The notes: generated by a model from the letters alone, not told the origin. A DNA stretch of 64,000 bases from Candidatus Eiseniibacteriota bacterium (GCA_963823555.1 CAWGMA010000004.1:64001-128000), one strand, 5' to 3'. Positions 1,438-57,969 are shown, counted from the stretch's first letter. Program-made: numbers and translations.

Positions 1438-2097
1438 ATGGACGCAGCATCCGACCGGCGCCCGCCGGACACCACATGGGAGGGGGGAGGAGGTGGCGGT
1501 GAGGGCGCGGAGCTCGTACCGCTCCTACGCTCCAGCCACATCTTTGCCTCCGTCGTTCGCGAGTTTCTCGAGCTCAAGCTCCTGCGCGAAGTAAGTCCCG
1601 CTCCGCTCTCCCTCTCCCAGTTCCATCTTCTCAAGCTCGTTTGCGACAACGGGTCGCACCAGGTCGGGGAAGTCGCCGAGTTCCTCGGCGTCAGCCCTCC
1701 TGCCGCCACCAAGAACATCGACAAGCTCGAAGCTCTCGATCTCGTTCGCCGCAGTCCATCCCGCGGCGACCGGCGGGCCACGATGCTCCATGTCGGTCCC
1801 AAGGGCCGGCGGCTGGTCGATGACTACGAGCAACTCAAGACCGCACGACTGGCTCCCATCCTCGCCGGCTTCCGTCCGGAAGAACTCGGGCAACTCGCGA
1901 CGTTGCTCGAGCGCTTCTCGGTGGCGTTGCTCGAGGCCGAGGATTCGAACGGAGTCTGTCTACGATGTGCCGCCTATGTGGAGAGCGACTGCCCCGTGAG
2001 CCGTGTGCGCGGCTTCTGTCCTTACCAGAAGGCGCGCGGCGGGCGGGTGAGTGAACTGAACCCAGAGGGAGTTGACCGACTCGAGGGGAGTTCTTGA
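1438..2097 (+). CDS. MarR-family regulator with C-terminal Cys cluster
   Basis: LSLSQFHLL...VGEVAEFLGVSPPAATKNIDKLE..LVRR...DRR wHTH; tail CLRC-x7-C-x8-C. Confidence 0.85.
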   Translation: MDAASDRRPPDTTWEGGGGGGEGAELVPLLRSSHIFASVVREFLELKLLREVSPAPLSLSQFHLLKLVCDNGSHQVGEVAEFLGVSPPAATKNIDKLEALDLVRRSPSRGDRRATMLHVGPKGRRLVDDYEQLKTARLAPILAGFRPEELGQLATLLERFSVALLEAEDSNGVCLRCAAYVESDCPVSRVRGFCPYQKARGGRVSELNPEGVDRLEGSS

Positions 2098-2438
2098 TGG
2101 TCCTTTGGCGAAAACCCCTGGATCTCGATCAGGTCAAGATCCCGCGCGGAGAGGTGCGGATCATTGCTGATCGCTGCAAGGGATGCGGATTCTGCGTCGA
2201 GTACTGCCCGAAGGATGTCCTCGTGCTGTCCGAGGAATTCAATCGGAAGGGTTACCACCCGCCACGGGTGGTCAAGAGCGGAGAATGCGTGAACTGCAAT
2301 CTCTGCGAGATGATCTGCCCGGACTTCGCCATCTTCAGCGTTTCCGCCAACGGTCCGGCGCCGGACGCGGGCGAGGCGGATCGTTCGGCGGCCGGGCCGG
2401 CGACTGCGGTGGTGCCGAGCGCGGGTGGAGCGGCCTAG
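2097..2438 (+). CDS. korD: 2x[4Fe-4S] ferredoxin, 2-oxoacid:ferredoxin oxidoreductase delta subunit
   Basis: CKGCGFCVEYCP and CVNCNLCEMICPDFAI; directly upstream of the alpha subunit. Confidence 0.88.
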   Translation: MVLWRKPLDLDQVKIPRGEVRIIADRCKGCGFCVEYCPKDVLVLSEEFNRKGYHPPRVVKSGECVNCNLCEMICPDFAIFSVSANGPAPDAGEADRSAAGPATAVVPSAGGAA

Positions 2439-2470
2439 GCCAGCCTCCGCCCGGCCGAGGAGGATTCGAG

Positions 2471-3628
2471 GTGAAAGCGGATCCATTGGGTGTCCTGACC
2501 GGCGCCCACTATCTGGATGGCGATTTCGCTTGCGGCGAAGGGGCGATGGCTGCCGGGTGCCGCTTCGTCGCCGGCTATCCCATCACGCCGTCAACCGAGG
2601 TCGTCGAACGTATTGCTCGCCGCTTCCCCATGATGGGAGGCCTCTTCATCCAGATGGAGGATGAGCTCGCGAGCATGGCGGCCGTCGTCGGCGCGGCGTG
2701 GACCGGAACCAAATCGATGACCGTGACGAGCGGGCCAGGCTTCAGTCTGATGATGGAGAACATCGGGCTCGCGGCCATGATGGAGACGCCCTGTGTCGTG
2801 GTCAATGTCCAGCGTGCCGGACCTTCCACCGGTCTTCCGACCATGGTCGGCCAGGGCGACATGATGCAGGCGCGCTGGGGATCTCACGGCGATTACGAGA
2901 TCATCGCCTTGTGTCCTCGTTCTCCCCAGGAGGCATTCGATCTCACGATCGAAGCCTTCAACCTGGCGGAGACCTATCGTCTACCGGTTCTGATCATGAT
3001 GGATGAGTGCGTGGGTCACATGACGGAGAAGGTGGTGATCCCCCCCGCGGAAGAGATCGAGATCGTGCCGCGCCGCTTGACCGAGGAGCCACCGGATCGA
3101 TTCCGCCCCTACCGGGTCAACGGGAACATGATCCCCGAGTTCGCGCGGGCCGGTGATGGATTCCGTTTCCATACCACCGGACTTACTCATGACGAACGCG
3201 GCTATCCTGACATGACTGCCGAGTGCCAGGAGAAGAGTGTGCGGCGGCTCATCGACAAGGTGCGCGCCAATGCCGATCGCATCATCCGCGTCGAGGAAGA
3301 AGCGATCGAAGGGGCCGATGTGGTGGTGGTGACCTACGGCATCACCTCCCGCGTCGCTCGCATGGGAATCCAGATGGCGCGCAAGCAGGGAGTGAAGGTC
3401 GGGGCGCTCAGGCTGCTCGTGGTCTGGCCCTTCCCGGAGAAACGGATCCGGGAGCTGGCGGGGAGGGTCAAGGCGTTCGTGGTGCCCGAGATCAACTACG
3501 GACAGATCGTGCTCGAGGTGGAGCGCTGTGCTGCGGGCAAGGCGGCGGCGGTGTCCGTGACGCACGGCGGCGGCGGCGTCCATGATCCGGCCGCGATCTG
3601 CGAGGCCATAGTGAGGGCGGCGAAATGA
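2471..3628 (+). CDS. korA: 2-oxoacid (2-oxoglutarate-type):ferredoxin oxidoreductase alpha subunit
   Basis: AGYPITPSTE, QMEDELAS, TSGPGFSLM, VQRAGPSTGLPT; GTG start at 2471. Confidence 0.93.
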   Translation: MKADPLGVLTGAHYLDGDFACGEGAMAAGCRFVAGYPITPSTEVVERIARRFPMMGGLFIQMEDELASMAAVVGAAWTGTKSMTVTSGPGFSLMMENIGLAAMMETPCVVVNVQRAGPSTGLPTMVGQGDMMQARWGSHGDYEIIALCPRSPQEAFDLTIEAFNLAETYRLPVLIMMDECVGHMTEKVVIPPAEEIEIVPRRLTEEPPDRFRPYRVNGNMIPEFARAGDGFRFHTTGLTHDERGYPDMTAECQEKSVRRLIDKVRANADRIIRVEEEAIEGADVVVVTYGITSRVARMGIQMARKQGVKVGALRLLVVWPFPEKRIRELAGRVKAFVVPEINYGQIVLEVERCAAGKAAAVSVTHGGGGVHDPAAICEAIVRAAK

Positions 3629-4518
3629 CGACGGCTGATTCAACGACCGTTCGCGCGGAAGAGCATCCCATTGCGCCATACATCCGCATGGATCGTATGC
3701 CGCACATCTGGTGTCCGACCTGCGGGATCGGGACGGTGGTCAAGTGTTTTGCTTCTGCCCTGGAGCAGACCGGCGTCGACCTCGACAAGGTGGCGGTTGT
3801 CTCCGGGATCGGTTGCACGGGGCGCGTGGCTGGATACATGAAGCTCGACGGCTTCCACACCACCCACGGCCGGGCGATCCCCTTCGCCACCGGGCTCAAG
3901 CTGGCCCGGCCGGAGCTCAAGGTCACCGTCTTCTCCGGAGATGGCGACCTGGTGGGAATCGGCGGCAACCACTTCATCCATGCCGTGAGGCGGAACATGG
4001 ATCTGCTCGTCATCCTGGTCAACAACTTCATCTACGGGATGACAGGCGGGCAGAACGGGCCGACGACGCCGGTCACGGCGCGTTCGTCGACCATGCCTTT
4101 CGGCAACTTCGAACGGTCCTTCAACCTGCCCCATCTGGCGGCGAGCTGCGGGGCCACCTATGTCGCCCGCTGGACCTGTCTCCATGTGCGGCGGTTGACC
4201 AAGGCCTTCGCCGAGGGAATCGATCGCAAGGGGTTCCGGTTCATCGAGGTCATCACCCCGTGCTCGACTCTCTATGCGCGCCTCAACAAGCTCGGCACCG
4301 GCTTCGAGCTCATGAAGTTCTACCACGACAATGTCGAGATCCAGCACGCGGCGGATACGCGGGATGCGGACATTGGCTTCCAGGGAAAGATCCTCTGCGG
4401 GAAGTTCATCGATGAGGAGAGACCGACATTCCTCGAGATGATGCACGAGCACTACCGGAAGGTCCTGGGAGAGAAGTACGTACCGATGCCGCCCGAGGGA
4501 GGAATGCTCCGTGGATAG
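3625..4518 (+). CDS. korB: 2-oxoacid:ferredoxin oxidoreductase beta subunit (TPP-binding)
   Basis: WCPTCG, SGIGC, HTTHGRA, GDGD...IGGNH, NNFIYGMTGGQ. Confidence 0.93.
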   Translation: MTTADSTTVRAEEHPIAPYIRMDRMPHIWCPTCGIGTVVKCFASALEQTGVDLDKVAVVSGIGCTGRVAGYMKLDGFHTTHGRAIPFATGLKLARPELKVTVFSGDGDLVGIGGNHFIHAVRRNMDLLVILVNNFIYGMTGGQNGPTTPVTARSSTMPFGNFERSFNLPHLAASCGATYVARWTCLHVRRLTKAFAEGIDRKGFRFIEVITPCSTLYARLNKLGTGFELMKFYHDNVEIQHAADTRDADIGFQGKILCGKFIDEERPTFLEMMHEHYRKVLGEKYVPMPPEGGMLRG

Positions 4519-5119
4519 GCTCGAGATGCGGATCACAGGGTTCGGCGGCCAGGGGGTCGTGCTCGCCGGCTACATCTTCGGGCGCGCCTGCGCCATCCAC
4601 GCCGACAAGCACGCCACCATGATCCAGAGCTTCGGACCCGAGGCCCGCGGATCGGCTTGCAGTGCCACCCTGGTCGTATCCGACAGTGAGGTGCTTTACC
4701 CCTACGTCCAGCGGCCGGACATCCTGATCGTGATGTCCGGTGAAGGCTATGAGAAATACGGCGCCGAGCTCAAGGATGGAGGCACGCTGATCTGCGAGCG
4801 GGACCTCGTCAAGGCGGAACCGAAGCCGGGGCTCAAGATCTTTGCCGTGCCTTCGACCCGGATCGCGGAGACGCTGGGCAGGCCGATCGTGCAGAACATC
4901 GTCATGCTGGGCTTCGCGGCCGCCGTGATCGCTGCGGTGCCGCAAGAAGCGATGATCACGGCAGTGAAGGGATCGGTCCCGGCGGGGACCGAGGACATCA
5001 ATCTCAAGGCCTTCGCTGCCGGCTGGGAGTACTTCGAAACCGAGTACGGGAGCAAGGGGCAGGCGGCGCCGGCCAGCGAAGCGGTGGGAGCGGCGCCGGC
5101 GGAATCCGGAGCGACCTAG
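4511..5119 (+). CDS. korC: 2-oxoacid:ferredoxin oxidoreductase gamma subunit
   Basis: GFGGQGVVLAG, QSFGPEARG, NIVMLG, NLKAF. Confidence 0.9.
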   Translation: MDRLEMRITGFGGQGVVLAGYIFGRACAIHADKHATMIQSFGPEARGSACSATLVVSDSEVLYPYVQRPDILIVMSGEGYEKYGAELKDGGTLICERDLVKAEPKPGLKIFAVPSTRIAETLGRPIVQNIVMLGFAAAVIAAVPQEAMITAVKGSVPAGTEDINLKAFAAGWEYFETEYGSKGQAAPASEAVGAAPAESGAT

Positions 5120-5152
5120 TTGCGGGAGAGCCGCAAGGTGGAGTGAAAGAGG

Positions 5153-8100
5153 ATGGGCAAGCGACGGCAGCAGCCGGTGGAAACGATCGAGCCCGCGGTG
5201 GTGGAGAGACGGGCGCTGGTGATCGGTGGTGGTATCGCCGGTATCCAGGCAGCGCTGGATCTTGCCAACGCCCGCGTGCGCGTCAGTCTGGTGGAGAAGT
5301 CGCCGTCACTGGGTGGACGCATGGCCCAGCTCGACAAGACCTTTCCCACCATGGACTGCTCGATCTGAATCCTCGGCCCCAAGGCCATGGATGCCGGTCG
5401 GCATCCGCTCATCGACGTCATCACCAATGCCGAGGTCGTCGCCGCTGAGGGCGAGCCCGGTAGCTTCCGCGTGCGCGTTCGGCAGCACCCGCGCTTTGTC
5501 CGCGAGGATCGCTGCGTGGCCTGTGGGCTTTGCGTGGACGCTTGCCCCCAGGTCGGGGGCAATGAGTTCGACGTCGGCCTGAAGGCGCGCAAGGCCATCT
5601 ACCGCCCGTTCCCGCAGTCGGTGCCTGCGGCCTACGTTATCGACCGCGAATCCTGTCTCAACAAGAAGCTCCTGGTCTGCGATCGCTGCGTTCGCTCCTG
5701 CGACGTCGACGCCATCGACTTCGACATGGCGCCGCGGGACATCGATCTCGATGTCGGTTCGATCCTGGTGGCCGTCGGGTTCCAGGAGTTCGATGCCCGG
5801 AAGCTCGGCAACTACGGCTATGGGCGCTTTCCGAATGTGGTCACGAGCCTGGAGCTCGAGCGGATGCTGAACGCCTCCGGAGTCACCCAGGGCCATGTGG
5901 TACGACCCTCCGACGGCAAGACCCCACGGCGGATCGTCTTCATCCAGTGCGTGGGCGCGCGCGGCGAGGGTGGCCGTCCCTATTGCAGCCGCTTCTGCTG
6001 CATGAATGCAGTGAAGGACTCGATGCTCATCCGCCAGCACGATCCGGAGGTGGAGGAGATCACGATCCTCTACACCGACCTCCGGGCGTTCGGGAAGGGC
6101 TTCGATGACTTCCTCCAGCGCTCGATCGATGAAGAGAGCGCTCGCTACATCCGCGGCCGCCCGTCCAAGGTCGAGCATGTTCCGGAAGGCGATCAACTCG
6201 CGGTCTTCGTCGAGGACACACTGGGCCACGAGCTCAAACGGCTCGAGTCCGATCTCGTCGTGCTCTCCGTCGCGGCCGCTCCCAATGATGGCGCCATCCA
6301 TCTCGCCCGCATCCTCGGCATCGAGACCGACGCCTACGGTTTCATCGCGCGGCGGGATCCCGCCATCTCGGCGGTCGAGACCACCCGTCGCGGCGTCTTC
6401 GTCTGCGGCAGCGCGGTCGGGCCGCAGGTGATTCCGGACTGCGTGGCGCAAGCCTCGGCGGCCGCCTCGCGGGCCGGGCTGTTCTTGACCGGCCATCGTG
6501 TCGAGGAGCAGGAGTCGAAGGTCCAACCTCTGGATCTCTCCGGTCCACCGCGCGTCGGCGTCCTCGTATGTCACTGCGGCATCAACATCGCCGGCCTCCT
6601 CGACGTCGAGGAGCTCGCACGCCACGCCGCGGCCCTTCCCGATGTGGTGGTGGCTCGGACCCAGCTCTTCGCCTGCTCGGCCACCGGCCAGGATGAGCTG
6701 GTCGAGCTCGTCCGCGAGCACGGGCTGAACCGCATCGTGGTCGCGGCGTGCACGCCGCGCACCCATGAACCCGTCTTTCGCGAGACCTGCCTCAGGATCG
6801 GCTTCAATCCCTACCTCTTCGAGATGGTGAACATCCGCGATCAGTGTTCGTGGGTCCACGCGAAGCACCCGGCCGCGGCGCAGCAGAAGGCACGTGCCCT
6901 GATCGGGATGGGGGTGGCGCGGGCCCGGCACCTCGAGCCGCTCACGACCGGGCGCGCGCCGATGACGCGGGCCGCCCTGGTGATCGGGGGCGGTATCGCC
7001 GGCATCCAGGCGGCCACGGACCTGGCCGCCCAGGGTTTTCCCACCGTGCTCGTCGAGAAGTCGAGCCGGCTGGGCGGGCGCCTGGCCGAGCCCCATCTCA
7101 AGCATCTGTATCCCAGCCTCAGGCCGGCGGCCGAGGTGCTCGCCCAGAAGCAGAAGCGCCTCGAGGAGAGCGGAGCCCGCGTCCTGCTCGAGACCGAGGT
7201 CGAGGACATCAGTGGATTCGTGGGCAGCTTCACGGCGAAGCTGCGCGGCCGGACGACCGAGGAGCTCAAGGTCGGGGCCATCATCCTCGCTTTCGGGGCC
7301 GACCTCTACGATCCGGAAGGCGAGTTCGGTCGCGGGCGCTTGCCGAACGTGATCACGAGCGAGGAGCTCGAGCGGGCCTTCTTCTCGGGCGACGGCGAGC
7401 TGACCCTCGGCGGCCGGCGGCCGCAGCACGCGAGCTTCATTCTTTGCGTGGGCTCGCGCGAGGCGCACGGGTTCACCGGCTGCTCGCGCTACTGCTGCCC
7501 GACCGCGATCAAGCAGGCCATGCAGCTCACCCGCCAGGGGATCGATACGACCGTTTTCTACCGTGACATCCGCACCATCTCCACCGGAGCGGAGGAGATG
7601 TACCGCGAGGCGCGCGGTATGGGTGTGCTCTTCGTGCGCATCCCTCCCGGTGAGAAACCCGAGGTGGTGGGGAAGGAGCGGGTCGAGGCGGTGCGCTGCT
7701 TCGACGATCTCCTCGGCCGGCGCCTCGAGGTGCCGAGCGACCTCGTGGTCCTGAGCGTCGGCATGCGGCCGCGCCGGGAGGATACGGCCCGGTTCCACGA
7801 GATGCTCAAGGCGAGCCTCGGCCTCGACGGGTTCTTCCTCGAGCGGCACCCCGAGCTGGGACCGGTGGAAACCCAGGTCGAAGGGATCCTCCTCGCCGGC
7901 ACCGTGCAGGGTCCCAAGGACATCGTCGACACGGTGGCGCAGGCCTCGGCGGCCGCGGCCAAGGCGGCCGTATTCCTGGCCTACGACCAGGTCACGCTCG
8001 ATCCGGCGGTGGCGGTGGTGGACGAGGTCCGCTGCCGCGCCTGCGGCACCTGCGTCGACATCTGCCAGTTCCAGGCGCCGGAGCTCGTCGAACTGGCGCC

Positions 8101-8257
8101 GGGGATCACGACCGCGCGCATCAACGCCTCCCTGTGCAAGGGGTGCGGAACCTGCGCCAGCTGGTGTCCTTCCGGAGCGATCACGGCCAAGCACTTCACC
8201 GATCGGCAGTTGAACGCCATGATCGATGCCTTCTTCGCCGCGGAGGTGGAGTCATGA
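5153..8257 (+). CDS. hdrA: HdrA-like flavo-iron-sulfur protein with two FAD modules; predicted selenoprotein (TGA 5366-5368 = Sec72)
   Basis: ORFs 5153-5368 and 5387-8257 are in frame and join as [22 protein letters not shown]; two GGGIAG FAD motifs; CSRFCC and CSRYCC; ferredoxin motifs. Confidence 0.9.
5389..5406 (+). promoter_or_regulatory. Bacterial SECIS hairpin (hdrA1)
   Basis: GGATGCC-GGTC-GGCATCC, 7-bp stem starting after a 20-nt spacer from the in-frame TGA. Confidence 0.85.
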
Positions 8258-8766
8258 CGGCGACCGCTACATCCTTCACTCCCGACATCGTCGTGTTCGC
8301 GTGCAACTGGTGTTCCTATGCCGGAGCCGACACGGCCGGCGTGTCACGCATGCAGCACGAGCCGCACTTCCGGATGATCCGGGTCATGTGCTCCGGGCGT
8401 ATCCAGCCGGCCTTCGTCCTGCGCGCCTTCGAGCGCGGAGCCGACGGTGTGATCGTCTCCGGCTGCCATTTCGGCGACTGTCACTACGTCTTCGGCAACC
8501 ATCGGGCCGTCGAGCAGTTCGAGAAGACGATGGCGATCGTGAAGCTCCTGGGCATCGATCCGGGTCGCCTGCGGCTCGAGTGGATCAGCGCGGCTGAGGG
8601 CGCGCGGTTTGCGCAGGTCGTGAACGAGTTCATCGCCCAGGTGCGGGCACTCGGGCCGAGTCCGCTCCGGCGCCGGAGGCCGGCCGGCACGGAGTCGGGA
8701 TCGGGAGATCAGGTGGCGGTGGCGCACGCGGCGGCCGGGGCGCCGGGGGTGGGATGCAATGGTTGA
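8254..8766 (+). CDS. mvhD: MvhD/FlpD-type [2Fe-2S] subunit
   Basis: [39 protein letters not shown]. Confidence 0.93.
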   Translation: MTATATSFTPDIVVFACNWCSYAGADTAGVSRMQHEPHFRMIRVMCSGRIQPAFVLRAFERGADGVIVSGCHFGDCHYVFGNHRAVEQFEKTMAIVKLLGIDPGRLRLEWISAAEGARFAQVVNEFIAQVRALGPSPLRRRRPAGTESGSGDQVAVAHAAAGAPGVGCNG

Positions 8767-9904
8767 GCTCAAGGACATCACGCGGCGGGCTCGCACCTGG
8801 GCCTGCTATGACTGCGGCAAGTGCACCGCCACCTGCCCGCTGGCGCGGGTCGGCGGCGGGCTGAGCCCCCGCCGCTCGGTGCTGGCCGCGAACCTGGGCG
8901 ACCGCTCGGCGCTCCTCGTCGATGGCAGTCTCCGTGCCTGCCTCACCTGCAGCCAGTGCGATCAGCGGTGCCCGGTCGAGGTCGACTACACGAGCATGGT
9001 GCGAGAGCTCCGTGAGTTCACTCATCACGGACCGAGCGAGCCCGACTGCCCGCATGGGGGAGCCCTGCAATCGGTCATGCGCATGATGGCCCGAGGGGGT
9101 ACCACACAGAATCGACTCGAGTGGCTGGGCGGCGATCTGGCCACCGAGCCGGCCCAGGGCGAGGTCTTCTACTGGACCGGGTGCGGCGTCTACTACGACG
9201 CGTTCTTCAAGGACCTGGGAGTCGAGGCGGTTTCCGGCCTCCGCGCCGCGGTCCGGCTCATGAACCGGCTCGGCGTCAAGCCGGTGGTGTCCGCGGAAGA
9301 GCGTTGCTGTGGTCACGATCTTCTGTGGAACGGCGATCGAGCGAGCTTCGAGCTCCTGGCCCGGCACAACACGGCGCTCGTGGCCGCAAGCGGCGCCCAG
9401 TGGCTCGTGACCTCCTGCGCGGAGTGTCTGCGCACCTGGAAGGTCGACTATGCGCCGTTCCTGAGCCGCCCCCTCAAGGTCCTGCATATCACCGAATTCG
9501 TGGCCGAGCATCTCCCCGAGCTCAAGCTCAAGCCCGACGGCGAGAAGCGGGTCACCTTCCAGGATCCCTGCCGGATGGGCCGCCACCTCGGGCTCTACGA
9601 GCCGCCGCGCCGCATTCTCCGCGAGCTGCCCGGGGTCGAGTTCAAGGAGATGCGGCGGGCCGGAGCGGCGGCCGTTTGCTGTGCGGGCGGGACCTGGTCC
9701 AACTGCGACCGGTACGCCAAGCAGGTCCAGGTCGAGCGCCTGCGCGAGGCGCGTTCGACCGGCGCTCAAGTGCTGGTGACCGCATGTCCGAAGTGCCAGA
9801 TCCACTTCCGGTGTGCGATGCGAGATCCGAAGCTCGGAGCGGAAATCGAGATCGAAGTGCGAGATGTCGCCGAGCTCGTGGCCGAGAGGCTCGAGCCGGC
9901 TTGA
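8759..9904 (+). CDS. HdrD/GlpC-like Fe-S protein (2x4Fe-4S plus two CCG domains)
   Basis: CYDCGKCTATCP, CLTCSQCDQRCP, ERCCG, SCAEC, QDPCRMGR, CCAG, ACPKC. Confidence 0.88.
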   Translation: MVELKDITRRARTWACYDCGKCTATCPLARVGGGLSPRRSVLAANLGDRSALLVDGSLRACLTCSQCDQRCPVEVDYTSMVRELREFTHHGPSEPDCPHGGALQSVMRMMARGGTTQNRLEWLGGDLATEPAQGEVFYWTGCGVYYDAFFKDLGVEAVSGLRAAVRLMNRLGVKPVVSAEERCCGHDLLWNGDRASFELLARHNTALVAASGAQWLVTSCAECLRTWKVDYAPFLSRPLKVLHITEFVAEHLPELKLKPDGEKRVTFQDPCRMGRHLGLYEPPRRILRELPGVEFKEMRRAGAAAVCCAGGTWSNCDRYAKQVQVERLREARSTGAQVLVTACPKCQIHFRCAMRDPKLGAEIEIEVRDVAELVAERLEPA

Positions 9905-9932
9905 TCGATAGACCGAGAATGGAGAGGTTCTG

Positions 9933-12387
9933 ATGATCTCCAAAGCGACGAACGACGAGCCACGCATCGGGGTCTTCGTCTGCGACTGTGGCCTCAACAT
10001 CGCAGGCGCGGTGGACTGCGCGGCGGTCAGCGAGTACGCGAAGGATCTTCCCGACGTGACTTGCGTGGTCCGCAACAAGTACACCTGCGCCGACCCGGGG
10101 CAGAACGAGATCAAGGCGGCGATCCGCGAGCACCGGCTCAACCGGGTGGTGGTCGCCTCCTGCACGCCCCGGCAGCACGAGCCGACTTTCAGGCAGTGCG
10201 TGTACGAGGCCGGCCTCAACCCCTACCTCCTCGAGATGGCGAACCTACGGGAGCACTGCTCCTGGGTCCATGCCGGGGATCGGGAGGGGGCGACGCGCAA
10301 GGCGATGGACCTGGTGGCGAGCGCCGTGGCGCGCGCCCGCTTCCTCGAGCCGCAGGAGGAGATGACGGTTCCGGTCACCGAGACCGTGCTGGTCATCGGC
10401 GGCGGCGTGGCCGGGATCGAGGCGGCGCTCGAGCTGGCCGAGGCCGGGCACCGGGCGATTCTGGTGGAAAAGCAGCCGTCCATCGGTGGGATCATGGCTC
10501 AGCTCGACAAGACCTATCCCACGATGGACTGCTCTATATGAATCCTCGGGCCTAAGGCCATCGATGCCGGTCGGCATCGGAACATCGAGCTCCTCACCTA
10601 CAGCGAAGTCGAAGAGGTCTCCGGCTACATCGGGAACTTCTCGGTCAAGATCCGCAAGAAGGCGCGCTATGTGGACACCGCGCTCTGCAACGCCTGCGGC
10701 GAGTGCGCCAAGGTGTGTCCGGTGGCGAAGCCGGACGAATATCAGACCGGTCTCTCCTCGCGCCGGGCGATCTACATTCCCTTCCCGCAGGCTGTGCCGT
10801 GCTCGTACATCTTGAACATGGACGATTGCCTGGGCAACAACCCCATCGCCTGCGGCAAGTGCCTCGAGGTGTGCGACAAGAAGGCCATCAACTACGACGA
10901 TCGCGATGAGATCATCACCCGCGAGGTGGGGGCGGTCATCGTCGCAATCGGGCTCAGCGTCTACGATCCCACGGATCTCGACGAGTACGGGTACACGCGG
11001 TTCGACAATGTCATCACCTCGATGGAGTTCGAGCGCTTGATCTGTGCCGGTGGGCCGACCCTCGGCGAGTTCGTGCGTCCGAGTGACCAGGAGCGGCCGA
11101 AGCGAATCGGGTTCATCCAGTGCGTCGGATCGCGCAATCCGCGGATCGGACGTCCCTACTGCTCGAACATCTGTTGCATGAACACGATCAAGGACACGCT
11201 TCTCCTCGCGGACCACTATCCGGACACCTCGAGCTTCGTCTTCTATCAGGATATCCGCGCCTTCGGCAAGTCGTTCGAGGACATGTTCCAGCGGTCCAAG
11301 GAGGAGGGTACCCGCTACATTCGCGGCCTCCCCGGTGACATCGAGGAGGATCCTGGGACCAAGAACCTGATCATCACGGTCGAGAACACGACCTCGGGTC
11401 GCCTCGAGACGTCACGAGCTCGACATGGTGGTGCTGTCCGTGGGGGTCGGTCCGCCGGACGATCTGGCCAAGATCTCGCGCCTCTTGACGCTGTCCAAGA
11501 CCTCCGACGGTTTCCTCATGGAATCGCATCCCAAGCTGAAGCCGGTGGACGCGCCGACTCGCGGGGTGTACTTCGCAGGGTTCTGCGAGGCGCCGAAGGA
11601 CATCAAGGACTCGGTCTGCCAGGCGGGGGCGGCTGCCTCCCGGGCGGGCGCGCTGCTCAATCAGCGCCAGATCAAGATCGAGGCGATCACGAGCCGCGTG
11701 GTGGAGAACGCCTGCATGAAGTGCGGGCTCTGCGCCCAGGTCTGTCCCTACGGTGCCATTCAATGGCACAAGGGCGAGGTGGCGCATGTGATCGAGGCGG
11801 CCTGCGCCGGATGCGGAGCCTGTGGCGCGACGTGCAGCTACGGAGCGATCACCATGCGCCACTTCCGGGACGAGCAGCTCCTGGCGCAGGTGCATGCCGT
11901 CCTCGCCGACCGTCCCGAGGACAAGGTGTTCGCCTTCGCCTGCAATTGGTGCTCCTACGCCGGGGGCGACATGGCGGGAATCTCGCGCTTCCAGTATCCG
12001 ACCACCAACCGGGTCGTCCGCACCATGTGCTCGGCGCGCGTGTCGGAGGAGATGGTGCTCGAGGCCTTCCGCCACGGAGCGCCCGTGGTGCTGGTGTCGG
12101 GGTGTCATTACGCCGACTGCCACTACATCAACGCCAATCGCCAGACCGTGAAGCGCGTGCAGCGGCTATGGGATCAGCTGGAGAAGGCGGGCGTACGTCC
12201 GGAACGGCTGCAGCTCGAGTGGATCAGCGCGGCCGAGGGCCAGAAGTTCGCCCGCGTGATGCGCGATCTCGAGGAGTTGCGGAAGACCGTGACCGCCGAG
12301 GAGATCGCCCATGCCCGGGAGGCGCTCCGGCCCAAACCGAAGAAGGGTGCCGCCAAGAAGGTGGAGGTCGAGGCGGCTGCCACGTAG
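9933..12387 (+). CDS. hdrA: HdrA-MvhD fusion; predicted selenoprotein (TGA 10539-10541 = Sec203); apparent frameshift near 11410
   Basis: [11 protein letters not shown]-terminal domain, [26 protein letters not shown] in frame with the 10671 ORF; continues in the 11425-12387 frame ([10 protein letters not shown], ferredoxin, [12 protein letters not shown]vhD domain). Confidence 0.88.
10562..10579 (+). promoter_or_regulatory. Bacterial SECIS hairpin (hdrA2)
   Basis: CGATGCC-GGTC-GGCATCG at the same 20-nt spacing from TGA; outer pair is C-G versus G-C in hdrA1. Confidence 0.85.
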
Positions 12388-12390
12388 ACG

Positions 12391-12603
12391 TTGTTGACTG
12401 GCCTCGGCCGAGGGCGGAGCGCAGGGGAGAACCGGACGAGAACGACGGCCACGCTGGTGACGATGCGCTGCATGATGTGCGGGCACGAGTACGAGGAGCT
12501 GGTGGAGGAGGGGGAGGACAAGGAGCGCTCGTGCCCGAAGTGCCGCTCGAACTCGATTCGTCTCTTGAAGAAGAGACGGCCGGGGAGCGGGGAGTCACAC
12601 TGA
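12391..12603 (+). CDS. Small Zn-ribbon (FmdB-like) protein; start uncertain (ATG at 12464 possible)
   Basis: RCMMCGHEYEEL...SCPKCRS; stop overlaps the next ATG. Confidence 0.65.
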   Translation: MLTGLGRGRSAGENRTRTTATLVTMRCMMCGHEYEELVEEGEDKERSCPKCRSNSIRLLKKRRPGSGESH

Positions 12604-14044
12604 TGATCCGGACCCCAAGCAAGGAGGACGAGGTCGTCCGCGTCGACTTCGAATTCCGGCGCGAGCTCGCGCGGAAGGTCGAGGGCAACCTGGCGGCTAC
12701 TGCTACCAGTGCGGCGCCTGCGTCGGCGATTGTCCTGCCGCGCGGTACCTGGGCGCGTTCAATCCGCGGGAGATCATGCTCAAGGTGCTCTACGGCCTGG
12801 GGGAGGAGCTCCTCGAGCCCGATTCGCTGCTCTGGGCCTGTGCCAATTGCTACAACTGCCACGAGCGCTGCCCGCAACAGGTGAAGCCGGTCGAGGTGAT
12901 CATCTCGCTCAAGAACATGCTGGCCGACCGCGGGCTGGCTCCCGACCCGGTCGAGAAGATCATCCGCACCTTCGAGACCACGGGCCGCACCACGCCGATG
13001 AGCGCGGCCGTGGATCGCCAGCGGGCCGACTTCGGGCTCGAACCTCTCAAGCCGGTGCCGGTCGAGGAGATCCAGCGGTTGCTCGTCGCCGAGGACCAGG
13101 CGGCGGCCCGGTCCCCCGGTGCGACCCATGCCACACCGACGCCGCAGCCCGAGCGGGACCCGGCGCTTCGCCTTCTTTCCCGGCTGTCTGATCCCGGCCC
13201 GCCATCCAGGGATGGAGGTGGCCATCCGGGAGTCGCTCTGGCCCGGCTCGGGATCGAGATCGTCGATCTCGAGGGCACGTCGTGCTGTCCGGATCCGATC
13301 TACTTCAAGTCGAAGGACAAGATGAGCTGGCTGGCCGTGGCCGCGCGCAACCTTTGCCTGGCCGAGGACCTCGGGGTCGACATCTTCACCAACTGCTCGG
13401 GATGCACGGCGACGCTGTCCGAGTGTTGCCATCTCCTCGAGGACGAGACGTTACGCACGAAGGTCAACCAGCGCCTGGCCCGCATCGGCCGCGAGTACCT
13501 GGGGACCGGACGCGTCCGGCACGTCGTGACGCTGCTCCGGGATGTGGTGGGCTACGAGGCCATACGAGCATCCGTCGTGCGCCCGCTCACCGGACTCAGG
13601 GTCGCCATCCACTACGGATGCCATCTGCTCAAGCCGAGCCGGATCATGCAGGTGGATGATCCCGATGATCCCACGGTTCTCGAGAACCTGGTCACGGCGC
13701 TGGGGGCGACCCCGGTGCGGCATCGCAACTGGTATCTCTGTTGCGGCAAGGCTTGCCAGGCCGAGGAGATTCCGAAGAACATGATGCACGACCTTCTCGG
13801 CGCCGTGAGCGACGAGGAGGCGGATCTCCTCTGCCTCATCTGCCCGACCTGCTTCGGCCAGTTCGACCATGGACAGGTGCGGGTGGCGCAGGAGTTCGGC
13901 GCCGATTTCCACACGCCCCCCATCTACTACTTCCAGCTGCTCGCCCTGGCCCAGGGCCTGCCCTACGAGCGGCTGGGGTTCGAGCGCCAGCGGCTGAAGC
14001 CGGAAGCCATCAAGCGTTTCGCCGCGGACGTCAGCGCGGGATAG
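12603..14044 (+). CDS. hdrCB: HdrC-HdrB fusion with apparent frameshifts near 12695, 13160 and 13238
   Basis: YCYQCGACVGDCP and CANCYNCHERCP (HdrC); FAFFPGCLIP in an alternate frame, then SCCPDP, NCSGC, HYGCH, LCCG, ICPTC..QFD (HdrB); no stop or new start seen between the parts. Confidence 0.8.
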
Positions 14045-17047: not shown

Positions 17048-17610
17048 TCACCCGGCCGGCTGGTCCGCGTACTCACCGGCCAGCTCGAGCCCGAGCCGGT
17101 AGGCCTTGCGGTTGAGTTCCTCGGTCCCGCGCGGGACGCGGGCCAGGATCGCCTGCTCGGCGGCCTCTTCGGTCACCGCCTTCGACAGTCGCACGATCAC
17201 GCCCAGGGCGATGATGTTGGCGACGATCGGTTTGGCGAATTTCTCGCCGGCGAGGCCGAGCGAAGGGGAGCGCCGACCACGCGATGATCGCCGTCCGGGA
17301 GGCGAGTCACCGCCCCCGAGTCGACGACGAGCCAGCCACGGGGCCTCAGATCCTTGAGATAGCGATCGAGTGCTTCCTGGGTGAGCGCGAGCAGGAGGTC
17401 GACGTTCTCCGCCTTGGGATAGTCGATTTCCTCCTCGGAGACGATCACGTCGGAGCGACTGGCGCCCCCGCGCGCTTCCGGACCGTAGGATTGGCTCTGG
17501 GTGGCATTGCGGTCGTCGTAGATGGCGGCCGCCTCGGCGAGGATCTTGCCGGCGAGAACGAGGCCTTGTCCGCCCTCACCACTCAAACGAAGCTCGAACC
17601 GAAAGGGCAT
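17048..17610 (-). CDS. korC: Second (orphan) 2-oxoacid:ferredoxin oxidoreductase gamma subunit; frameshift near 17260
   Basis: GEGGQGLVLAG, QSQSYGPEARGGASRSDV; C-terminal IVANIIALG...NRKAYRLG in another frame, ending at TGA 17050-17048. Confidence 0.85.
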
Positions 17611-20929: not shown

Positions 20930-23674
20930 CTAGGGCAGCTTGACGACGCGGATCGCGCTCTGCTCGCCCCGATTCTCGAGGCGGAGCCAGTAGACGCCAG
21001 GGGCCACGGGCCGCCCGCCGGCGCTCTTCCCGTCCCACGTGAAGGATTGCCATCCAGCCGGGTGATCCCCCACCGGGAGCGATCGCACCAGCCGGCCATC
21101 CACATCATAGACCCGGAGGGTGGTCCGGCTCGAAGCGGAGGGCAGGAAGGCCTCGACCGCGGTCGCCGTCGAGAAGGGGTTGGGGGAGGCGCGTCCGAGC
21201 ACGAGCCGCGCCGGGGATGCCGGTTGGGAGGCGGCGATCCCCGCGCTCGCCCCGGTGAGCCCCTCGATCACGAGGTCGTCGACTCCGGCTTCGACCAGGG
21301 TCTGCGTTCCGTAATCCGAGGCCGTGAAGCGGAGCTGCATGCGATCGGTGTAGGGCAGCTCCTCGCGCAGGAGCTCCTCCTTCACGAATCGCCACTCCGG
21401 CTCGTCGGATGTGATGGCGAAGAGCGGATGCCAGCTCCCTCCCGCATCGTTCGAGACATCGATCCGGAACACGTCATCACCGGGGAAGCGCGACCAGATA
21501 TAGGCGGAGATCCGTACATAGCTCTCGGCGCTCAGGTCGAAGAGCGGCGAGAAGAGCGTGGTGCGCCCACCATCGACATCCCCAGCCGAGGCGTTGGCTC
21601 CGGGTCCCGGGTTCCCGGTGACGAAGGCGTGCGTGCCTGGGGACGGCGTGTGATCGTCCTCGGGAGCGACGATGAAGCTCCCGATCACCGTGCCGTAGGG
21701 ATCATCATGCACCCAGAACCCGGAGGTGGCATCGTCGTCCGGGGCTCCGGCGGTCCAGCCGACGGCGGTCTCGAGGTCGTTCGTCAGGATCGGCACCATG
21801 GTGCCGACCACGAACAGGAACGGATCCGCTTCGCCGCCCGCCGGGAGCGCCGCATCCGGCCCGTTCAGCGCATCGGCCACGAGGTAGTAGCGGATGTAGC
21901 TGCCGGCCGCCTGCGCCGGGATCTCCCCTTGCCACTCGTTCGGGTTCCCGCTCGGCGTCATCGGCGCGGTCAGGAACGGCCCGCCCGAGACGCTGTAGTG
22001 GATGGTCATGGCCACGACGCTCTCGGGCAACAGGGCCGGAGTGGCGATGGCGACCACGGGATACGGATTCGTCTCGTCGGTCGTGTCGGCCAGAGGCTCG
22101 TGCTCGAGGGTGACACGGTAGAAGACATCGATGATCTGCCCGAGGTCGGGCAGGACACCGATCGGCTTCGAAAGCGGCTCACCCTGCGGGGTGCCGTTCA
22201 TGGCAAGGATGGCGCGCAATGTGAGCGGATCGATGGTGAGTCCGAACATCTGCTGGCAGAGGTTCTGGGTCACGGCGGCGGCACCGGTGATGATCGGCGA
22301 TGCGCTCGAGGTGCCGGAGAAGGTGCCGGTATAGAGCTGGTCGGGATCGCCTGGATTGAAGAGCCCGCCGTAGCCGGTGGTGGCGACCGAGCTGCCGAAG
22401 CCGTGGGCGTCGATCCGGGTTCCGTGATTGGTCCAGCACTCGGGAATGTGGGTTCCGGGCGCGGCGGCGCCGACCATGATCGCCCCCGAATCCCGGATGG
22501 CGCGGTTGAAGAGCCCGTTGTACTGCGGGCCATCGAGGTTCATCGATCCATTGCCGCCGGCCTCGACCACGATGATCCCCGCTGCGGTGTGGGTCTGGAT
22601 GGCGTCGAAGTTCGCCTGCTCCCACTCCATGGGCACGTATTCGAACTGGCTGCAGTTGCAGGGACAGGTCTGGCCGCTGGGTGGTCCCGGCATGTGGTAC
22701 TCGATGAGGTACATCTCGCCGGGCTCGAGATGGCTCGCGGCGAGATCGAAGGCGCCGGCCACCGAGCCGGCGTTCCCGCCGTTGACCATGCGCGCCGTGA
22801 TGCCGTGGGCGATCCCGGTGATGCCGAACGGCCCATCGCAGCCCACCACCTCGCCGAGCACCGCCGTCCCGTGATGGTTGTCCGGAGCTGAAGGTGGGTT
22901 GAGGATGGCCACATCCCCGAGATCCTCGTGGGTCACGTTCCATCCGTTCTCGATGTCGACGAACCAGTAGTCGGGGACACCGCGCCCCGAGGGATGGAAG
23001 TCCCAGGCGGCGAACGCGTCCACGCCGGCGGGTGCGGGCTCGAGGTAGAACTGGTTGCCGACGAAGCTCGGCGTCGTGGGCAGGATGTCGGTGCAAGCCA
23101 GGGCCGGGATGCCCTCGAAGTAGGCGGTCTCGACGCAGTCGAGGGCGAGCCAGCTCGCCGCCACGGACTCGGTGTCGACGCCGGGGGTCAGGTAGACGAG
23201 ATAGTAGTTGTTGAGATCGGCCAGTTCCGTCCCGGAGCGCGCCCTCGCGAAGGCGCGGTCGCGGTCGAGATCCGACTCGGAGCGGGTGAAGAGGCGTTCG
23301 ATGCGATCGATGCTGGTGGCCCTGGTCGCCAGCTCGAGGCCGGGGAGCGGTCGGCCCTGCGTCTCGACGAGAGCGCCGTCGCGGAGCCGGACCCGGAGCC
23401 CCTCGGCGAACTTGAGGACGAAGCGATCGCGCCGCTGGTTCGGTCTCGGGGCGAGATCGACGAGGGCCTTGGGCAGGACGGCGCGCTTGAGCGTCGAGGG
23501 CGGAACCTGCGCCATGAGCGGATCGAGCGGATCGTGGATGGCGCGCACCTTCTCGGCGAAGGGTCGCGGCTGCCGTGAGCCGGCCGTCGCCGGCGAGGCG
23601 AGGGCGAGACCACCGATCATGAAGGCGGCGAGCAAGGGGGCGGCCACGGACCAGGTGGGCAGGCAATGGCGCAT
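20930..23674 (-). CDS. Secreted S8 (subtilisin-like) serine peptidase with FlgD-Ig C-terminus
   Basis: Triad segments VDIENG, HHGTAVLG and GTSSASP; AGGNG oxyanion motif; PNPF...YDVDGRLVR..PGVYW; GGAGG RBS. Confidence 0.87.
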   Translation of the reverse strand: MRHCLPTWSVAAPLLAAFMIGGLALASPATAGSRQPRPFAEKVRAIHDPLDPLMAQVPPSTLKRAVLPKALVDLAPRPNQRRDRFVLKFAEGLRVRLRDGALVETQGRPLPGLELATRATSIDRIERLFTRSESDLDRDRAFARARSGTELADLNNYYLVYLTPGVDTESVAASWLALDCVETAYFEGIPALACTDILPTTPSFVGNQFYLEPAPAGVDAFAAWDFHPSGRGVPDYWFVDIENGWNVTHEDLGDVAILNPPSAPDNHHGTAVLGEVVGCDGPFGITGIAHGITARMVNGGNAGSVAGAFDLAASHLEPGEMYLIEYHMPGPPSGQTCPCNCSQFEYVPMEWEQANFDAIQTHTAAGIIVVEAGGNGSMNLDGPQYNGLFNRAIRDSGAIMVGAAAPGTHIPECWTNHGTRIDAHGFGSSVATTGYGGLFNPGDPDQLYTGTFSGTSSASPIITGAAAVTQNLCQQMFGLTIDPLTLRAILAMNGTPQGEPLSKPIGVLPDLGQIIDVFYRVTLEHEPLADTTDETNPYPVVAIATPALLPESVVAMTIHYSVSGGPFLTAPMTPSGNPNEWQGEIPAQAAGSYIRYYLVADALNGPDAALPAGGEADPFLFVVGTMVPILTNDLETAVGWTAGAPDDDATSGFWVHDDPYGTVIGSFIVAPEDDHTPSPGTHAFVTGNPGPGANASAGDVDGGRTTLFSPLFDLSAESYVRISAYIWSRFPGDDVFRIDVSNDAGGSWHPLFAITSDEPEWRFVKEELLREELPYTDRMQLRFTASDYGTQTLVEAGVDDLVIEGLTGASAGIAASQPASPARLVLGRASPNPFSTATAVEAFLPSASSRTTLRVYDVDGRLVRSLPVGDHPAGWQSFTWDGKSAGGRPVAPGVYWLRLENRGEQSAIRVVKLP

Positions 23675-23746
23675 CGGACTCCTCCAGGCAAGACGTGTCA
23701 CCACGATAATGGTAGCACGAGCCCTGGCAGAGCGATGCATGAAGTG

Positions 23747-23784
23747 GCGGAGCCCGGAAGGTGAATTCACCCTCCGGGCTCCGC
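23747..23784. repeat. Near-perfect 38-bp palindrome (hairpin, possible terminator)
   Basis: GCGGAGCCCGGAAGGTGAA/TTCACCCTCCGGGCTCCGC with one mismatch. Confidence 0.8.
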
Positions 23785-37580: not shown

Positions 37581-37615
37581 GGATATTCCTCCAGCTTCCC
37601 TTCGAGCCATGCGCA

Positions 37616-38125
37616 TCAGGAGCGGGTGACGAAGATGTCGTCGCCCTCGACCTGCACCTCGTATGCCGTGAGCGGGTGCGGCGGCGGTCCGGCGACGTTG
37701 GTTCCGTTCAGGTCGTACCACCCGTTATGGCAAGCACACCAGATGCGACGCGAACCCTTGTCGAACTGCACCGTGCAATCGAGGTGGGTGCACGTTGCCG
37801 AGAAGGCGCGGTACTCGCCGGGCTCCACTTCGATCAGGATTCCGGGCTGGGAGCCGAAGGGGAAGATCTTCCAGTTCTCCCCGGCCAGCTCGGGCTTCTT
37901 GGCGGCGAGGACGCGGTTGGTCGCCGCTTCGGGGACGCGAGGGGGGCTCAGGTAGCGCAGGATCGGGTAGATGACAGCCGCAGCCAGCGCCACCACCGAG
38001 AGACCGAGGACGCCGTCCAGGAACCCGCGGCGAGTCACCGGTCCCCCGCCGGGATGGGAGCGCGACGGATCGTGGGGCATGCCGGCCGCCCCACCCGGGC
38101 CTGTCGTCGATCGCGAATCCTTCAT
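37616..38125 (-). CDS. Rieske [2Fe-2S] protein with Tat signal (start uncertain)
   Basis: [28 protein letters not shown]. Confidence 0.9.
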
Positions 38126-43268: not shown

Positions 43269-43716
43269 GTACGCCTACGGCCTTTCTCACCACATGGGCT
43301 GTCTAGATGTCAGCTCAGCCGAGGCTTCGAGAGCCAGGATGACCAAAACCCGGCCGGCGCGGTCGGGCGGATCAAGGGAGGGGGATGAATCTCAACCTCA
43401 TACTGAACGGCATCTTGTCCTGCCAACGGCCATGCGGTCGATGATCGGTACGATGTATGCGCTGAAGATCGCCACATCCTCTGGCTCTGCGCTGGAGGAT
43501 GAAGGCTCAGACCTCACCGCCCAGCGCCCCCCGCGGGTCCCGGCGCGAGCCGCCTGACGATGAGGCCGCTGGCGGATCCTCTCCTGTATTACATGTCCCT
43601 CGATATGCGGACAACATCCCTGCGACCAGTAGCTTCTGGCAGCAACGTAAGATCGGGAGTGGAGCATGGAGCATCTCGGGACCCAAGGGCACCTTGGCCA
43701 ACGCGGAAGCTTCAGA

Positions 43717-57193: not shown

Positions 57194-57241
57194 CCGCGGC
57201 TCCTCCTCCGCACTCGATCCCAAGTCTCGGGAGATGCGTGA

Positions 57242-57904
57242 ATGACCAGCGCGGTGCTCACCTTCGAGTCCTCGGTCGGCCGCAAGTTGGTGATGGCCCT
57301 GACCGGCATCCTCCTCTTCGGCTTTGTTCTCGGGCATATGATCGGGAACCTCCAGATCTATCTCGGGCCGGAAGCGATCAACCACTACGGCGAATTCCTG
57401 CGCGAGCTGGGGCACGGCGGCGCGATCTGGGTGGCGCGGCTCGTGCTGCTTGCCGCCGTCGGGCTCCACATCTGGGCGGCGATCACCCTCGCCCTCGAGA
57501 ATCGCGCCGCGCGCCCGCAGCGCTATCGCCGTCTGGGCTACGAGGCCTCCGACTACGCTTCGCGCACCATGATCTGGAGCGGTCCCCTGCTCGCCATCTT
57601 CGTCGTCTACCATCTCCTCCATTTCACGATCGGCTCGGTGCACCACGACTTCATCCCCGGCGATGTCTACCACAACGTCATCGCCGGGTTCCGTGTCTGG
57701 CCGGTGTCCGTCTTCTACATCGTCTGCATGCTGGCGTTGGGATTCCATATGGTCCACGGCTTGTGGAGCATGCTGCAGACCATCGGCTTCAGCCACCCGC
57801 GCTACAACGCCTGGCGCCGCACCTTCGCCGTCATCTTCACTCTCGTCGTCGTCGTCGGGAACATCTCGATCCCGGTCAGCGTGCTGACCGGTGTCATCCG
57901 CTAG
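57242..57904 (+). CDS. sdhC: Succinate dehydrogenase/fumarate reductase cytochrome b subunit (single, diheme type)
   Basis: [20 protein letters not shown], about 5 TM segments with His ligands. Confidence 0.9.
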
Positions 57905-57969
57905 CGCTGGGCCGGGCCCTCGGGCGTCGCGCCGCGCGGTTCCGGTTCACAGGGAGACGGTCAAGCGTC

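Follow-up and report, generated by a model that had tools for sequence, protein, structure and literature searches.

Background

Gene clusters that bring a four-subunit 2-oxoacid:ferredoxin oxidoreductase (OFOR; Kor) together with heterodisulfide reductase (Hdr) have been described in tubeworm symbionts and in Thioflavicoccus, in which korABCD is interspersed with flxABCD-hdrABC and tfrAB in a cluster of the reductive tricarboxylic acid (rTCA) cycle, and for which the available portion of the source hypothesises a Kor-Hdr complex (PMC6315080). Here, we analyzed a kor-hdr cluster found in a stretch of 64,000 nucleotides from a Candidatus Eiseniibacteriota bacterium (GCA_963823555.1 CAWGMA010000004.1:64001-128000, G000:C4:64001-128000 in our numbering; hereafter the window), whose genome of 4.6 Mb is contained in 4 contigs, is 92.5% complete and has a GC content of approximately 67%. 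The cluster lies on the + strand at positions 1438-14044 and consists of 11 co-oriented genes in the order marR-korD-korA-korB-korC-hdrA1-mvhD-hdrD-like-hdrA2/mvhD-Zn-ribbon-hdrCB. As in the tubeworm symbionts, its four-subunit kor is co-oriented with hdr; it differs from the cluster described in the accessible text in having no flx, tfrAB or aclAB (tfrA was not searched specifically in the relatives) and in containing two each of selenocysteine (Sec)-HdrA modules, MvhD domains and CCG subunits.

The BCRII complex of Geobacter metallireducens, for which two energy-coupling or bifurcation modules in series were shown (bioRxiv 10.64898/2026.04.10.717634, available sections), was compared on the basis of the preprint's description of BamDEF and not of Bam sequences. 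Both systems have a fused permuted HdrA dimer, a CxxC-type redox pair with a lysine at the first flavin adenine dinucleotide (FAD) site, an MvhD adaptor and an HdrCB-fusion subunit. Relative to the same description, the second FAD site of HdrA1 keeps a lysine where BamE has a glutamine, the redox pair is Cys-Sec, MvhD is short and without Sec whereas BamF is long and contains it, and both non-cubane sites of the HdrD-like protein are intact while most BamD have a disrupted distal CCG cluster. The second module is another HdrA here and HydBC-type in BCRII, and the catalytic partner is a thiamine pyrophosphate (TPP) enzyme instead of a tungsten reductase. The partners BamBC and BamGHI are absent from the window cluster, and none was seen among the recurring flank clusters inspected.

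Among methanogens, HdrA2B2C2 of Methanosarcina acetivorans (PMC5296606) also shows an HdrA-MvhD fusion and bifurcation without hydrogenase or formate dehydrogenase (Fdh), but its substrates in this methanogen are F420H2 and CoM-S-S-CoB, and neither a Kor linkage nor a second HdrA module is described in the available text. The class I methanogen Hdr-Vhu(Mvh)/Fdh-Fwd super-assembly (PMC13518236, available sections) shares the Cys-Sec HdrA pair and the swappable input modules, and in it ferredoxin-like subunits link the low-potential output of HdrA to a CO2-reducing enzyme; it differs in its hydrogenase/Fdh input, its formylmethanofuran dehydrogenase output and its CoM-S-S-CoB disulfide. When set against methanogen HdrABC-MvhAGD/FdhAB, the HdrA FAD site, the Lys/Glu residues, the Fe-S ligands and the CCG sites of HdrB and HdrC were matched, but the dedicated MvhAG/FdhAB donor was not.

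No paper describing this architecture was found in the literature searched, which did not include the HdrA(BC) review of Appel et al. 2021, where it may already be listed, and the accessible parts of PMC6085437, 10.1101/2024.09.26.615249 and 10.1101/2025.06.09.658677 do not describe it. The sequence-only reading that singled out the cluster had considered it the best candidate in the window for an undescribed system, which is consistent with this search as far as the architecture is concerned, but a Kor-Hdr complex as such was already proposed for the tubeworm symbionts (PMC6315080, available portion). The cluster is real and conserved, its individual parts are known, and its architecture is a variant of HdrA-based bifurcation systems.

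Conservation of the kor-hdr cluster

When species genomes were scanned with the HdrD-like protein, 464 stretches were confirmed, and conservation was counted in the best 80 of them (33 Planctomycetota, 26 Acidobacteriota, 4 Myxococcota, 4 Gemmatimonadota, one record each for five other groups, and 8 unlabelled). The cluster is spread near-intact over about eight phyla, with 70-85% identity among Planctomycetota, Acidobacteriota, Gemmatimonadota, Myxococcota and others. In these 80 loci, kor was located upstream in 58 of the 60 that had at least 6.5 kb of upstream sequence, the two exceptions having assembly N-gaps within hdrA1, and where enough sequence was available hdrA1 was found upstream (75/75) and hdrA2 (72/73) and hdrB (62/63) downstream. 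From the opposite side, metagenome loci recovered with KorA and having at least 2.5 kb downstream were Hdr-linked in 19 of 19 cases at ≥ 74% identity. The gene-neighbourhood check of kor-hdr adjacency therefore gave conservation in both search directions. The gap between korC and hdrA1 has a median of 37 bp and was ≤ 50 bp in 42 of 57 loci, start codons being picked roughly. In the window's own phylum, HdrD-like matches at E 1e-40 were present in 22 of 201 genomes, with no match in the nearest kin; this patchy distribution, together with the mixed phyla in the KorA tree, suggests transfer and loss.

The variants separate a constant from an exchangeable part. In all 65 loci with at least 4.5 kb downstream, kor, hdrD and hdrA2 were constant, while hdrB (hdrCB) was present in 57/57 loci with HdrA1 and in 0/8 without it. 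In three loci (L021-L023), a fusion of a GltD-type flavoprotein, a ferredoxin and MvhD stands in place of hdrA1 and mvhD, some other HdrA1-less loci have a lone mvhD at the place of HdrA1 (the minimal variant), and four loci have an additional second hdrA1 with a GltD insert. From these variants we infer that Kor-HdrA2-HdrD would be the core into which an MvhD-terminated module plugs.

Rearrangements were seen as well. In L048, L054, L055 and L113, korC has moved behind hdrB to become the last gene of the operon and remains within the cluster, and a second, divergent korAB or korDABC stands beside the operon in many Acidobacteriota and some others (L049, L052, L080, L086, L087, L091, L092, L094, L107; L074, L098, L050). 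In several of these loci, a third hdrA-mvhD(-flx) module follows downstream. L030-L032 (G082, G018, G068) contain a different Sec-HdrA supercluster, which lacks kor and comprises several copies of hdrA, two of mvhD and an hdrD-like gene, near a 2Fe-2S NuoG-like open reading frame (ORF) (judged by eye). Clustering of the flanks of 192 loci gave no recurring gene that would reveal the substrate among the 45 largest clusters, as judged by eye.

Kor subunits and the KorD arm

Kor/Oor-type alpha, beta, gamma and delta subunits are all encoded. KorD (2097-2438, + strand), the 2[4Fe-4S] delta subunit, has NF042987 as its best NCBIfam match, below the cut-off; KorA (2471-3628, +), the 2-oxoacid:acceptor oxidoreductase alpha subunit, matches NF006412 with 561.8 bits (cut-off 411) and PDB entries 1yd7 and 8ys5; KorB (3625-4518, +), the TPP-binding beta subunit, matches PF02775 and has as best PDB match the 2-oxoglutarate enzyme 8ys5 (E 9e-61); and KorC (4511-5119, +), the gamma subunit, matches PF01558, with NF006323 below its cut-off. 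The closest named Kor matches are 2-oxoglutarate enzymes yet remain below the equivalog cut-offs, and 2-oxoglutarate as the putative substrate is based on family and PDB similarity.

The N-terminus of KorD carries a W-R-x-P-L-D arm (approximately 2097-2144), whose residues W4, R5, P7, L8 and D9 were invariant in 38 of 38 aligned sequences. This arm was present in 100/100 operon-type (Hdr-linked) loci and in 2/2 loci with other Hdr genes, in 1 of 19 loci that lack Hdr over at least 3 kb, in 0/2 kor loci with Hdr-Flx, and in 12 of 25 loci whose length did not permit a classification. When 77 hand-picked KorA rows were placed in a quick tree without bootstrap, the unlinked sequences fell mainly into two starred groups nested among the linked ones, and the arm was absent in both; one of them is a genus with KorA 77-80% identical to that of the window, in which the arm has degenerated. 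As the arm tracks the Hdr link, it supports a dedicated Kor-Hdr unit.

Several loci stand apart. L195-L200 (genus g29) and L127 encode korDABC with KorA 77-82% identical, a degenerate KorD arm and, where enough sequence is available, no Hdr genes, an absence that is likely a secondary loss. In L177, a rearranged korDABC-hdrC-hdrB-hdrA1(Sec) is found, the KorA of which groups with unlinked sequences, yet its KorD is armed. L151 and L156, from other metagenomes, have hdrCB 5' and hdrA-mvhD-flx 3' of korDABC, a tubeworm-like Kor-Hdr-Flx layout, and unlike the window cluster they lack the KorD arm.

A complex prediction was run with the KorD and HdrA2 alignments plus MvhD from the relative L035, and only KorD was scored. 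KorD against HdrA2 and MvhD reached a score of 0.54, while the best control gave 0.00 and replacement of HdrA2 brought the score to 0.00; at least 91% of contacts were common to the runs, and the predicted local distance difference test (pLDDT) values of the partner were at least 78. The mark used for such scores was reached by 116 of 157 solved pairs and by 2 of 215 mismatched pairs, but scores of 0.60 or under comprised just 18 solved pairs and both passing mismatches, and for this reason the support for the KorD-HdrA2 pair is weak.

Hdr modules and selenocysteine

According to family searches and domain order, HdrA1 (5153-8257, +) is a permuted, fused double HdrA of BamE-like type, with FAD core 1 (Cys69-Sec72 and an inserted ferredoxin), a thioredoxin-like cluster domain, FAD core 2 and a C-terminal ferredoxin, the thioredoxin-like and C-terminal ferredoxin domains being supplied by its second half. 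Its cluster ligands and both flavin-site lysines were invariant in 68 relatives; in module 1 Lys288 and Glu234/236 are invariant, as are their equivalents in HdrA2. It is followed by a free MvhD [2Fe-2S] adaptor (8254-8766, +; PF02662, E 2e-51) with invariant Cys ligands, an open frame of 170 codons without TGA. The HdrD-like protein (8759-9904, +) combines an HdrC-type dicluster with two CCG domains (PF02754 twice) in a BamD/EtfD-like manner; its best PDB match is 9ojn (E 3e-29), which we take to be mycobacterial EtfD, all ten CCG cysteines are kept in at least 95% of 76 relatives, and it scores 145 against a TfrB cut-off of 385.

HdrA2 (9933-12387, +) is fused to MvhD and carries the pair Cys200-Sec203. 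An indel at approximately 11409 splits the gene, which explains why its two pieces, with NF040770 as best family for both, score 725 and 395 bits and thus remain below the whole-protein cut-off of 1100. A pseudogene was rejected, given that the reading frame of hdrA2 is intact in 70 of 70 relatives and the window's copy has a single indel. A small FmdB-type zinc ribbon (12463-12603, +; PF09723 and TIGR02605, below cut-off) with two CxxC motifs, whose cysteines are invariant in 65 relatives, precedes hdrC-hdrB (12603-14044, +), which has three indels (approximately 12690, 13152 and 13238) and matches TIGR03290 and TIGR03288 piecewise below their cut-offs. The two genes are present in the order previously reported, but the fused form is particular to the window and 11 of 64 relatives, being separate in 52 and interrupted in one. 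HdrB/HdrC have two CCG non-cubane sites, the first HdrB cysteine lying in a frameshifted stretch, where it was seen but not counted. Since both CCG proteins retain their cluster cysteines, the earlier proposal of thiol/disulfide chemistry is plausible, although the top PDB match of the HdrD-like protein is not an HdrB.

The in-frame TGA codons at 5366 (hdrA1, TGA 5366-5368; feature 5366-5405, +) and 10539 (hdrA2; feature 10539-10578, +) occupy the second position of a CxxC-type pair (CxxU), and each is followed by a hairpin resembling a selenocysteine insertion sequence (SECIS) at 5390-5405 and 10563-10578, respectively. TGA was found at 162 of 162 homologous sites (window and loci L019-L114), with no Cys variant under that pattern. 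The hairpin has a 6-bp stem and starts 24 bases past the first base of the TGA; across the 162 sites, one base pair of the stem is C-G 146 times, T-A 12 times and T-G 4 times. SelA and a tRNA-Sec are encoded in the genome, and both TGAs look like selenocysteine codons; sequencing errors or true stops were rejected in view of the 162/162 sites and the covarying hairpin. The feature is not new, as a Cys-Sec pair in HdrA is already known from Methanococcus (PMC13518236, available sections).

Electron donors elsewhere in the genomes

No hydrogenase, Fdh or Flx gene lies inside the cluster, as reported before, but the genome encodes three NiFe hydrogenases, and the implication that the organism lacks hydrogenase was rejected. 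One of them belongs to a canonical locus with the order hdrC-hdrB-hdrA(GltD insert, HdrL-like)-mvhD-mvhG-mvhA-protease (G000:C3:130000-138700; L003, L008), and the others are Hox-type and group 1-type, as typed from their neighbouring genes. The hdrCBA-mvhDGA-protease layout recurs in the relatives L213, L214, L216 and L218. A TGA-containing Fdh-type molybdopterin enzyme (C1:1637485-1640622) and a fused NfnAB-like protein (C2:198454-201015) are also encoded, while FlxA had no match at E 1e-40 or better in the genome and none in the window cluster. MvhAG, which the sequence-only reading had named among the partners that would speak against its interpretation if encoded elsewhere and co-purified, is thus present in the genome but comes with its own mvhD and hdrCBA.

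Among the best 80 hdrD-found loci, mvhA/G was absent from all 80 (the mvhA query being a full in-frame ORF) and flxA-like matches occurred in 4, outside the cluster. The donors were further surveyed in 64 genomes that carry the cluster (those of 50 among the 80 loci, 13 genomes of the phylum, and G000), with cut-offs of our own (MvhA-type ≥ 48% identity, FlxA-type ≥ 42%) and completeness known for 14 of them. MvhA-type proteins were found in 24/64, FlxA-type in 13/64 and neither in 32/64, one of the latter with an ambiguous fragment; genomes with the full operon and without both MvhA and FlxA include three with 97, 97, and 92% completeness. The two MvhD domains of the operon are the only ones of the genome in 2 of 5 genomes tested, and mvhAG loci inspected in relatives had their own mvhD in 10/10 and their own hdrA in 9/10 cases. 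Fdh-alpha was not found above the family cut-off in the 5 genomes tested, in which sub-cut-off matches reached up to 405 bits. On these gene inventories, a borrowed donor appears unneeded to explain the cluster. A strong match to PF16114 (ATP-citrate lyase) was obtained in 1 of 64 genomes, and a canonical role in an rTCA cycle of the ATP-citrate lyase type was rejected on this count; SucC, present in 57/64, is too common to discriminate.

Operon layout, regulation and neighbourhood

The gene content, order and orientation reported earlier were confirmed, every gene being present. Overlaps occur at 6 of the 10 junctions (from marR to hdrCB: -1, 32, -4, -8, 33, -4, -8, 28, 75 and -1 bp), the largest gap being 75 bp. 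Upstream, a sigma70-like promoter with 10/12 matches (1377-1406, +) was obtained by a motif scan that gave 2 sites against 1.3 expected by chance, which is weak as sole evidence, and similar -35 boxes were seen by eye upstream of marR in relatives. Terminator-like matches numbered 5 against 4.9 expected, with none in any cluster junction. One promoter-like site and short junctions are compatible with the single transcript proposed previously, in which co-transcription is deduced from layout. In two sediment metatranscriptome runs (stretch shares of 0.08 and 0.06; 80% likeness), no listed piece bridges korC-hdrA1, the assembly at this likeness consisting of short contigs derived mostly from relatives.

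The first gene of the cluster, which had gone unnamed, is a MarR-family regulator (1438-2097, +; PF01047). Of the 55 loci in which the upstream DNA reached far enough, 34 have this gene. Its C-terminal four-cysteine motif (1954-2030), with two invariant and two partly conserved cysteines, is possibly a metal or Fe-S redox sensor. Just 3' of the -10 box, a palindromic operator-like site of the TTAAC-N3-GTTAA type with one mismatch (1407-1419, strandless) has a weaker copy at 1391-1403. With ≤ 2 mismatches the palindrome was detected in 32/36 marR loci, 3/15 marR-less loci and 7.6% of shuffles, a count that is not independent since the motif was derived by eye from the same loci. It is likely the MarR site, and the operon is likely autoregulated by MarR, probably through autorepression.

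Directly upstream of the cluster are genes for a Fe/Mn superoxide dismutase (3-560) and a hemerythrin-domain protein (651-1169), hinting at an oxygen or redox context; in L036, L039, L043 and L083, a small ORF that looked similar by eye is located before marR. A lone, frameshifted korC paralog, about 40% identical, lies convergent with the operon at 17081-17601 (-), and after it comes a long gene, likewise frameshifted, that was assigned to no family. Elsewhere in the window an SdhA/FrdA-type flavoprotein (57238-59883) and a cytochrome b fused to a multiheme cytochrome c (34719-37721) are encoded, as well as S8 (20930-23770) and M1 (43666-46395) peptidases with FlgD-like C-terminal domains. 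The earlier suggestion of a probable peptide degrader draws solely on these two peptidases and the aminotransferases of the window.

Proposed machine and alternative explanations

Of the explanations considered, we lean towards one in which Kor and two Sec-HdrA modules form one flavin-bifurcating machine with Kor docked on HdrA2; a dedicated Kor-Hdr complex is in itself probable, while the full wiring given below is tentative. For the bifurcating or confurcating Kor-Hdr unit suggested earlier, the adjacency conserved in both directions and the KorD arm, along with the weak complex prediction, speak in favour, whereas the MvhAG encoded elsewhere speaks in part against.

In solved complexes, the mid-potential port of HdrA is at MvhD, the high one at HdrC/B and the low one at the inserted ferredoxin (PMC13518236; bioRxiv 10.64898/2026.04.10.717634; available sections of both). 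KorD would contact HdrA2 with the N-terminal arm, the most likely site being the low-potential port at the inserted ferredoxin, to which ferredoxin-like subunits attach in solved Hdr complexes. The HdrD-like protein would be the high-potential arm of HdrA2 (thiol/disulfide or electron-transferring flavoprotein, ETF), and the mid-potential port would be served by a swappable module ending in a ferredoxin-MvhD adaptor. This module is usually HdrA1 with HdrCB, which would form another bifurcating unit of BamE-like type; some lineages have a GltD-type NAD(P)H flavoprotein instead. This assignment of the three ports accounts for the variants seen. A 2-oxoacid, likely 2-oxoglutarate, would be oxidised to yield very low-potential electrons, which HdrA2 would confurcate with high-potential electrons from the HdrD arm; the resulting mid-potential pair would reach NAD(P)+ in the GltD variant, or else be split by HdrA1 towards ferredoxin and a disulfide at HdrCB. 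The same wiring in reverse would drive reductive carboxylation. The 2-oxoglutarate couple lies near -500 mV and NAD near -320 mV. Given a thiol near -140 mV, as stated for CoM/CoB in the available part of PMC5296606 (-281 in that of PMC13518236), confurcation to NAD(P)+ would be feasible, while with ETF (+16 mV; bioRxiv 10.64898/2026.04.10.717634, available sections) the reductive direction would be favoured. We see a slight tilt to the catabolic, oxidative direction, because ATP-citrate lyase is mostly absent and the window encodes peptidases and aminotransferases.

Several observations weigh against this machine. We know of no solved precedent for coupling two modules MvhD-to-MvhD. The loci are related, so that counts are not independent events, and the 8 HdrA1-less loci come from few lineages. 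At 66-72% KorA identity, only 13 of 29 metagenome loci were Hdr-linked, and one genus keeps a 77-80% identical Kor without Hdr. The top PDB match of KorA is an unassigned 2-keto acid enzyme. Scores around 0.54 would more often be wrong than right unless the pairing is likely beforehand, the value may reflect solved HdrA-polyferredoxin complexes already known to the predictor, and the prediction gave no interface that would locate the port. Finally, MvhA is encoded elsewhere in all five genomes with the minimal variant, in which mvhD is free and HdrA1 is missing, and ETF, found in 62/64 genomes, is too common to discriminate.

Some of these points are those expected if the enzymes are co-regulated but physically separate, with Kor and the Hdr modules sharing a free ferredoxin pool and the operon persisting by co-regulation and co-transfer. 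The close Kor without Hdr in one genus, the other 16 of the 29 more distant metagenome loci, and the weak KorD-HdrA2 prediction agree with it, as does HdrA2B2C2 of Methanosarcina acetivorans, which works with free ferredoxin (PMC5296606, available text). This explanation, which we regard as unlikely, leaves the KorD arm unexplained, invariant in linked loci and absent in two unlinked KorA groups, and fits poorly with the fact that none of the four other OFOR loci of the genome is near an hdrA match.

Less likely again is a donor acting in trans (MvhAG, Hox diaphorase, Fdh or Flx), by which electrons from H2, NADH or formate would be split between Kor, for reductive carboxylation, and a disulfide, in a tubeworm-like manner. 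The MvhDGA, Hox and TGA-containing Fdh-type enzymes of the genome could serve as such donors, MvhA or FlxA occurs in 32/64 genomes, and MvhA is found in all 5 minimal-variant genomes; yet both are absent from the other half at the cut-offs used (many of these genomes being incomplete or of unknown completeness), the mvhAG loci inspected bring their own mvhD, Fdh-alpha exceeded the cut-off in 0/5 genomes, and ATP-citrate lyase was convincing in one of the 64. Finally, it is quite improbable that no disulfide is reduced and that the HdrD-like arm exchanges electrons with ETF, like BamD and EtfD, while Kor electrons are pushed below ferredoxin, BCRII-style, for an enzyme elsewhere, for although HdrA1-MvhD-HdrD mirrors BamE-BamF-BamD, BamD reduces ETF (bioRxiv 10.64898/2026.04.10.717634, available sections) and 9ojn is the best PDB match of the HdrD-like protein, no BamB/AOR-like or other recurring low-potential acceptor was seen among the flanking clusters inspected, and HdrD travels with HdrA2, not HdrA1.

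Implications

All characterised HdrA complexes that we compared take electrons from H2, formate, F420H2, NADH or ferredoxin. If Kor docks on HdrA, as favoured here, bifurcation would be tied directly to the release or fixation of CO2 at a C-C bond, an idea proposed for the tubeworm symbionts. The most far-reaching version, which we hold to be doubtful, is a hydrogenase-free megacomplex in which the KorD arm plugs a TPP enzyme into HdrA2 and two Sec-HdrA centres are placed in series via MvhD adaptors; if true, no Hdr-to-Hdr confurcation/bifurcation relay would have preceded it, and its socket would accept either a second Hdr or an NAD(P)H flavoprotein; it would use a bacterial thiol carrier and be common among uncultured bacteria of sediments. 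Smaller targets, both for expression and on the way to the substrate of bacterial Hdr, are the KorD arm, the pairing of HdrA1 with HdrCB versus HdrA2 with HdrD, and the six-gene GltD variant. Given its wide spread over phyla, the cluster may represent a common energy-saving route in sediment heterotrophs.

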